Shown: piece by piece, positions 2,019-2,284 of the stretch
How positions within the stretch are numbered: position 1 is the stretch's first letter
Layout of the letters: each line of letters starts with the position of its first letter
Origin: Escherichia coli
GTDB lineage: Bacteria; Pseudomonadota; Gammaproteobacteria; Enterobacterales; Enterobacteriaceae
Assembly (NCBI RefSeq): GCF_050920415.1
Contig: NZ_CP169309.1
Length of the DNA: 64,000 bases
Reading direction: 5' to 3' (one strand)
Made by a program: the position numbers and the translations under genes
Notes under the pieces: model-generated
What the model saw: only the letters and a program-made list of their open reading frames with translations
Databases searched by the model: none
What the model was told of the DNA's origin: nothing

Positions 2019-2284
2019 GCCTGATGCGACGCTGGCGCGTCTTATCAGGCCTGCGCAGGGGTAGAACCGTAGGTCGAATAAGGCGTTCACGCCGCATCCG
2101 ACAGCCGTTGCCTGATGCGACGCTGGCGCGTCTTATCAGGCCTGTGCAGGAGTAGAACCGTAGGTCGGATAAGGCGTTCACGCCGCATCCGACAGTCGTT
2201 GCCTGATGCGACGCTGGCGCGTCTTATCAGGCCTGTGCAGGAGTAGAACCGTAGGTCGGATAAGGCGTTCACGCCGCATCCGAC
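2019..2284. repeat. BIME/REP array: three tandem ~91-bp units, each with two oppositely oriented palindromic units
   Basis: Units start at 2019, 2110 and 2201; each contains GCCTGATGCGACGCTGGCGCGTCTTATCAGGC and GGATAAGGCGTTCACGCCGCATCCGACA; near-identical copies. Confidence 0.85.

Follow-up and report, generated by a model that had tools for sequence, protein, structure and literature searches.

A three-unit BIME-2 array of strain-variable copy number between dedD and the cvpA-purF promoter of Escherichia coli

In BIME-1 elements a single Y and Z1 pair of REPs is held apart by a long L linker, often with an IHF site, whereas BIME-2 elements combine Y and Z2 REPs with short linkers and are repeated in tandem, to a different number in different strains (PMC3333891). 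Gyrase sites are enriched in BIME-2, with Y cut far more often than Z2 (PMC6379681), and the K-12 element considered here is already catalogued as 'BIMEs2 cvpA-dedD, 83 bp' (PMC6379681 Table DS3). Topo-seq of a K-12 derivative recorded 0, 2, 1 and 0 gyrase cleavage sites in this one-unit orthologue with Cfx, Rif+Cfx, microcin and oxolinic acid, respectively (PMC6379681). At another locus, the six-unit BIME-2 known as REP325 lies between yjdM and yjdN, and its Y/Z2 RNA has been described as naRNA4 (PMC4550694). The six Y/Z2 units of REP325 protect the upstream yjdM mRNA and attenuate yjdN about 8-10-fold, partly in a Rho-dependent manner, and they yield a ladder of hairpin-ended RNAs; mRNA half-lives are, however, not uniformly lengthened by REPs (bioRxiv 10.64898/2026.03.23.713779).

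Within the window, that is, the whole 64,000-nt stretch of E. coli DNA analysed here (contig NZ_CP169309.1), a single tandem array was found at 2017-2300 by Tandem Repeats Finder, with a period of 91, 3.1 copies, 95% matches, no indels and a score of 512. A separate repeat search returned three copies at spacings of 91 and 91 and identities of 93-100%. Every unit opens with TTGCCTGATGC and consists of a Y-type REP in the dedD sense followed by an inverted Z2-type REP, giving six alternating REPs in total (Table 1) with linkers of 14 nt tail-to-tail and 7 nt head-to-head. Between the last base of the dedD stop (2009) and the start of the first REP stem (2019) lie 9 nt, and the span from first to last REP is exactly 2019-2284. 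The original prediction, made from the letters of this DNA, had placed three ~91-bp units with two oppositely oriented REPs each at precisely this span, directly after dedD and upstream of a PurR-regulated cvpA-purF promoter. Repeat detection and exact matching bear out this layout, and the PurR box follows at 2378-2393.

The Z2 stem of unit 1 is weakened by a G-to-A change (GGTCGAAT); on the dedD-sense strand the Y REP of this unit folds at -21.4 kcal/mol (z -5.4) and its Z2 copy at only -10.5 kcal/mol. Unit 2 folds at -41.5 kcal/mol (z -3.4), and unit 3 terminates in ACACGCA, the conserved right junction. No difference separates units 2 and 3 over their first 85 nt, which indicates that they are a recent local duplicate and that the window allele reflects this duplication. 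The extra 0.1 copy arises because the right flank TTGCCCGATGC (2290-2300) resembles the unit start TTGCCTGATGC, the two matching at 10/11 positions; the unit start and these first 11 nt of the right flank form a direct repeat that brackets the array. As RNA, the region 2004-2362 folds at -169.7 kcal/mol, against -127.9 +/- 5.3 for shuffled sequences (z = -7.9), and 0/100 shuffles did as well. An inverted-repeat search with a 9-nt seed found nothing in the array, since mismatches interrupt the REP stems and leave matches shorter than the seed, but folding recovers these stems. No further Y or Z2 REPs were found in the whole 64-kb window by a fuzzy search allowing up to 7 errors. A CRISPR-like array was also considered and rejected, since the entire 91-bp unit repeats, without unique spacers.

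Table 1. Positions of the array, its parts and the neighbouring features in the window
Feature	Position	Strand	Evidence or detail
FolC	89-1357		NCBIfam
dedD coding sequence (TAA stop 2007-2009)	1347..2009	+	NCBIfam NF008641 DedD, 392 bits, full length; RefSeq agrees on identical record
Y-type REPs (GCCTGATGCGACGCTGGCGCGTCTTATCAGGCCT)	2019-2054, 2110-2145, 2201-2236	+	Exact pattern matching
Inverted Z2-type REPs (GTAGGTCGGATAAGGCGTTCACGCCGCATCCGAC), each with 5' GTAG	2069-2102, 2160-2193, 2251-2284		Exact pattern matching
BIME-2 unit 1	2017..2107	+	Y REP 2019-2054 (tail CTGC), inverted Z2 REP 2069-2102
BIME-2 unit 2	2108..2198	+	Y REP 2110-2145 (tail CTGT), inverted Z2 REP 2160-2193
BIME-2 unit 3	2199..2289	+	Y REP 2201-2236 (tail CTGT), inverted Z2 REP 2251-2284
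Rfam naRNA4 (RF02564), junction of units 1 and 2 (Z2 head to Y head)	2072..2142	+	75.1 bits vs gathering 59.5
Rfam naRNA4 (RF02564), junction of units 2 and 3	2163..2233	+	80.8 bits vs gathering 59.5
ORFs through the array, minus strand	1957-2181, 2087-2311, 2178-2348	-
ORFs through the array, plus strand	2024-2155, 2115-2246, 2206-2313	+
Ancestral right flank TTGCCCGATGCTGCAAAGGCATAAAAAGTC	2290..2319	+	First 11 nt resemble unit start
Terminator-like hairpin, 12-bp stem, 6-nt loop, then TTTTTATT	2320..2357 (hairpin 2320-2349)	+	-19.6 kcal/mol, z -3.3
PurR operator ACGCAAACGTTTTCTT of the cvpA-purF-ubiX promoter	2378..2393	+	Reverse complement of ChIP-chip motif
Likely -10 (TAGAAT) of the cvpA-purF-ubiX promoter	2401-2406	+
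CvpA	2450-2938		NCBIfam
PurF	2975-4492		NCBIfam

Outside its tail, the window Y REP is the same as the published Y sequence GCCTGATGCGACGCTGGCGCGTCTTATCAGGCCTACG; the tail reads CTGC or CTGT in all three copies, and not the canonical CTAC. The inverted partner is assigned to z2 rather than z1 indirectly, from the full-length match to the Rfam Y/Z2 model and from the K-12 orthologue being catalogued as BIME-2. With this assignment, the array shows both the alternation of inverted y and z2 REPs and the tandem, strain-variable copies of a BIME-2, 3.1 here and 0-7 across E. coli. An IHF-binding BIME-1 was rejected: the IHF consensus WATCAANNNNTTR is absent from both strands of 1900-2450, and the copies are tandem instead of single. 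Given the tandem Y/Z2 composition, the missing IHF consensus and the K-12 listing, the element is therefore a BIME-2, and this makes gyrase, and not IHF, the relevant predicted binder. The original prediction had named gyrase and IHF together; its gyrase half applies to an element of this class and agrees with the cleavage sites in the K-12 orthologue, and its IHF half falls. A counterpoint even to the gyrase role is that the orthologue was cut in only two of the four Topo-seq conditions (PMC6379681). Altogether, we put at roughly 90% the probability that the array is a three-unit BIME-2 with six Y/inverted-Z2 REP hairpins in the 3' UTR of folC-dedD, with the dedD stop in front of it, a conserved intrinsic terminator behind it and the PurR-controlled cvpA-purF promoter further downstream. 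As such, the array and its behaviour are already known, and it is an ordinary E. coli BIME-2.

The stretch 1800-2500 is 100% identical to that of E. coli MFDS1022581, for which the RefSeq annotation gives no gene between dedD and cvpA; in the NC_000913.3 copy no REP feature is annotated in this spacer. Upstream, folC and dedD share 11 nt (1347-1357), from the annotated GTG start of dedD to the folC stop, an overlap that would fit translational coupling within a folC-dedD operon. Downstream, the operator corresponds to the ChIP-chip-defined K-12 PurR motif for cvpA-purF-ubiX, AAGAAAACGTTTGCGT (PMC3159470), and a 22-mer over the PurR box and promoter is found exactly in at least 120 species representatives of the Enterobacterales. 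An RpoN holoenzyme genomic-SELEX peak is listed for the K-12 cvpA/dedD spacer (PMC8743547), and the + strand of 1900-2460 holds no TGGCAC-N5-TTGC-like (sigma-54-like) motif.

The array lies in the dedD 3' untranslated region, and a terminator-like hairpin follows it. A hairpin with a T-run is kept in front of the promoter across the Enterobacterales with differing stems, for example GGCGTTGAA, GCGGCGATT and GGGCAATGAAA. Scanned sequence by sequence, 65/107 unique orthologues have a perfect hairpin and T-run, with 37 distinct 5' arms. This conservation despite changing stems supports the hairpin at 2320-2349 as the probable intrinsic terminator of the folC-dedD transcript. RNAalifold found no consensus structure in a MAFFT alignment of 42 orthologous terminator regions, because MAFFT mis-registers the different genera. 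The published Term-seq tables (Adams 2021, PMC7815308) contain no 3' end in the MG1655 dedD-cvpA spacer, which low expression or thresholding may explain.

The hairpin bears directly on what the array could do, since a conserved terminator-like structure between array and promoter means that the array is not the only candidate insulator. One could argue that the array is the main barrier keeping folC-dedD transcription out of the PurR-regulated cvpA-purF unit, with extra units strengthening the insulation. Its placement between two co-oriented operons would suit such a role, REP325 does attenuate its downstream gene about 8-10-fold, and BIME-associated attenuation is established (Espeli 2001). 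However, the stable hairpin and T-run between array and promoter are conserved across much of the Enterobacterales, even in genera without REPs at this place, and alleles with 0 or 1 unit are viable, the 1-unit allele being the commonest. We therefore regard a main insulator as improbable; any attenuation or insulation by the array is partly redundant with the conserved terminator downstream.

The number of units differs widely among strains, as had been predicted, with 0, 1, 2, 3, 4 and 7 found at the dedD-cvpA locus. A query made only of the two flanks, joined across the array, matched in 5,425/5,426 genomes, almost always only once per genome (median 1, maximum 2). Unit counts were then taken from insert sizes in 59 evenly spaced genomes out of the 5,425 E. 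coli. The commonest allele has 1 unit (39/59), followed by those with 3 (9/59), 4 (5/59) and 7 units (2/59); two of the 59 carry 1 unit plus a truncated unit, one has a single truncated unit (68 nt) and one has none. The sixtieth sampled genome, B25FEP, has IS621 in a Y REP. K-12 MG1655 carries one unit, and a 2-unit allele was found in O145 RM10425. The window version itself is rare, being matched at 99% or more by only 2/5,437 records.

Alleles read base by base show that gain and loss occur mostly in whole 91-bp steps, from 0 to 7 units. The junctions are constant in most alleles, with TACGGT(C/T) followed by TTGCCTGATGC on the left and CCGACACGCA followed by TTGCCCGATGC on the right; the right junction ACACGCA is common to 7/8 further unit-bearing E. 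coli alleles that were read, the remaining one (L056) having ACACTCA. O157:H7 strains have 3 or 4 units and differ by one internal unit, and the 3-unit allele of ST131 consists of three diverged units. The rare 0-unit allele, that of strain B19695, reads TACGGTC followed by TTGCCCGATGCC; as this strain is otherwise a typical E. coli, the simplest account is that a deletion took place between the TTGCC(T/C)GATGC direct repeats. Internally deleted units were also seen, one of 71 nt without most of Z2 and one of 68 nt that joins a truncated Y to Z2 (strains Rb-50 and ECCNB12-2), so that the locus changes not only by whole 91-bp steps. Copy number appears only weakly constrained, because it ranges from 0 to 7 units and because truncated units and an IS621-disrupted allele are also found; the occurrence of 0-unit, truncated and disrupted alleles in complete genomes means that no copy number is essential.

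The 91-bp direct repeats may let copy number change through slippage or unequal recombination; amplification by RAYT/TnpA_REP is another possible route. The substrate of TnpA_REP is an inverted REP doublet with a 5' GTAG, and the enzyme, which has been proposed to amplify BIME units, needs the CTAC complement of GTAG on the opposite strand (PMC3333891). The window Z2 REPs keep GTAG, but the complementary CTAC is gone from the window Y REPs. The 91-bp steps are accounted for just as well by simple homology-driven slippage as by amplification through TnpA_REP.

The Y tail of the K-12-type unit, ATCAGGCCTAC, is exactly the natural target of the IS621 bridge RNA (PMC11208160). In B25FEP (L005, NZ_CM177971.1, 1612-3148; window position ~2050), IS621, a bridge-RNA recombinase element of the IS110 family, is inserted in the dedD-cvpA BIME exactly at ATCAGGCCT^AC. 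The three window Y tails, ATCAGGCCTGC, ATCAGGCCTGT and ATCAGGCCTGT, are 1-2 mismatches away, and the exact target is absent from all of them. The CTGC and CTGT tails have thus cost the window array both the IS621 target and the CTAC complement of GTAG.

Units at the same left junction as in E. coli are also present in E. albertii, which has 2 Y/Z2 units and the right junction CAATGG, and in Escherichia sp. MOD1-EC7003, which has 1 unit and the right junction CACGCA of most E. coli. The shared left junction suggests that the element probably predates E. coli. Further away, the homologous flank ..TGCCCGAAGAGGCA.. is recognisable in several Citrobacter, with diverged versions in Salmonella, Klebsiella and C. 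sedlakii, and the dedD-cvpA slot holds other palindromes: a single Z-like REP in several Citrobacter, Y-like and Z-like REPs in C. koseri, a short Y-like palindrome in Salmonella arizonae and, in Enterobacter and Kluyvera, CCCTCTCCC...GGGAGAGGG palindromes that lie after the dedD stop and before the terminator. In Pseudocitrobacter faecalis the slot is filled by 7.2 tandem copies of a 59-nt repeat (L052, 1027-1456). The slot repeats of other genera are unrelated to the E. coli array (also in L012, L118 and L127), and the gaps range from 24 to 548 nt. It is conceivable, but rather improbable, that the gap between dedD stop and terminator is a recurrent landing pad, where each genus would have gained palindromic repeats of its own, independently and at times with tandem amplification. 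If so, selection would be favouring a structured 3'-UTR element whose copy number can be tuned and which sets DedD output or local supercoiling upstream of the purine promoter.

The same observations can be turned the other way, into the view that the array is a pure passenger, selfish or neutral REP/REPIN DNA in a permissive gap, whose copy number drifts without effect on dedD, cvpA-purF or topology. Such drift would account for truncated and IS-disrupted alleles, and for anything from 0 to 7 units, in otherwise normal genomes; for the unrelated palindromic repeats, or very little sequence, in the slot of other genera; and for a locus whose two operons the conserved terminator already separates. 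A passenger would not, however, be expected to stay at the same left junction with at least one unit in ~97% of the sampled E. coli, and in E. albertii and MOD1-EC7003 as well. Moreover, gyrase cuts the K-12 orthologue in vivo, REP325, which is alike in architecture, measurably affects its flanking genes, and hairpins as stable as these at 9 nt from a stop are unlikely to be without effect on the RNA. On balance, we consider a purely neutral array unlikely, if still a real possibility.

Two full-length matches to the Rfam naRNA4 model (RF02564), above the gathering score and on the dedD-sense strand, raise a different question, namely whether the array encodes naRNA4-like nucleoid-associated ncRNAs that, with HU, bridge REP cruciforms and condense the chromosome, as in the published HU/naRNA4 condensation model (PMC4550694). 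The matches sit at unit junctions, and their number is n-1 per n-unit array, with 6 in the 7-unit array of STEC299 and 1 in E. albertii. It follows that the model recognises the Z2/Y junction of any BIME-2 array and not a specific gene. In addition, the array lies at dedD-cvpA and so is not the yjdM-yjdN product of REP325, and no promoter-like site was found in 1900-2500. As for REP325 itself, a 2026 preprint with S. Adhya among its authors found neither compaction of the nucleoid nor REP-REP contacts dependent on HU, and it saw no stable ternary complex (bioRxiv 10.64898/2026.03.23.713779). A condensing RNA from this locus is hence very unlikely, and automated annotation would mislabel ordinary BIME-2 arrays as naRNA4 sRNA. 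The sole other Rfam match at the gathering threshold in the window is a nuoG RNA (RF01748) at 32995-33037 (+), which scores 50.3 bits (gathering score 33).

Six ORFs of 35-74 aa overlap the array. The original prediction had expected spurious ORFs on the minus strand; they are there, and the plus strand has them too. That those inside the array (43-74 aa, both strands) encode small proteins has a negligible chance of being true, the existence of the six frames being what speaks for it. The three that were scanned (two of 74 aa on the minus strand and one of 43 aa on the plus strand) gave no significant NCBIfam match, the best being SoxR with an E value of 0.0034 and 17 bits against a cutoff of 116.9 bits. 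The ORFs are generated by the repeat, shift with copy number and vanish in 0- and 1-unit alleles, and none is annotated by RefSeq in the identical genome. We conclude that the ORFs inside the array are spurious.

Analogy with described elements makes it most likely that the array would act locally, as a hairpin barrier and attenuator in the 3' UTR and as a gyrase site, under a loose constraint on copy number. As RNA, its hairpins may block 3'-to-5' exonucleases and partly attenuate read-through, as those of REP325 do. A second effect could be on translation: REPs located at most 15 nt from a stop codon have been reported to stall ribosomes and to lower translation (Liang, Rudd and Deutscher 2015 as summarised in PMC12306157), and the spacing is 9 nt in every unit-bearing E. 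coli allele that was read, so that by this rule the first REP may dampen DedD translation. As DNA, the Y REPs of the array are probable gyrase cleavage sites.

The underlying concepts are all published already, and the locus is of little importance beyond annotation. There, recognising the array prevents six spurious ORF calls and stops the Rfam naRNA4 match from being taken as a locus-specific sRNA gene. Moreover, a single BIME-2 here forms a clean natural allelic series (0, 1, 2, 3, 4 and 7 units), always at the same site and followed by a conserved terminator. This series could be used to test REP copy number against upstream mRNA stability, the stop-proximal REP against translation, and unit number against gyrase recruitment.

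Among known systems, the catalogued cvpA-dedD BIME-2 of K-12 is the same in locus, junctions, Y and Z2 REPs and 91-bp unit, but MG1655 has a single unit, with 3-4 differences from the window units over 85 positions, and the window strain has three. BIME-1 (RIB/RIP) shares with the array an inverted REP pair in an intergenic region; it is, however, single-copy with a long L linker and an IHF site, whereas the window array is tandem, has 14-nt and 7-nt linkers and carries no IHF consensus. The REPIN/RAYT (TnpA_REP) system likewise involves inverted REP doublets, and the Z2 REPs here have its 5' GTAG, but the window Y REPs are without CTAC. REP325/naRNA4 resembles the array in its tandem Y/Z2 units, its short linkers, its location 3' of a co-oriented gene and the Rfam match of 75-81 bits; it differs in having 6 units at yjdM-yjdN, whereas the 3 units at dedD-cvpA are followed by a probable intrinsic terminator. 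For a role of the window array as a stabiliser and attenuator in the 3' UTR, REP325 is the best experimental analogue.
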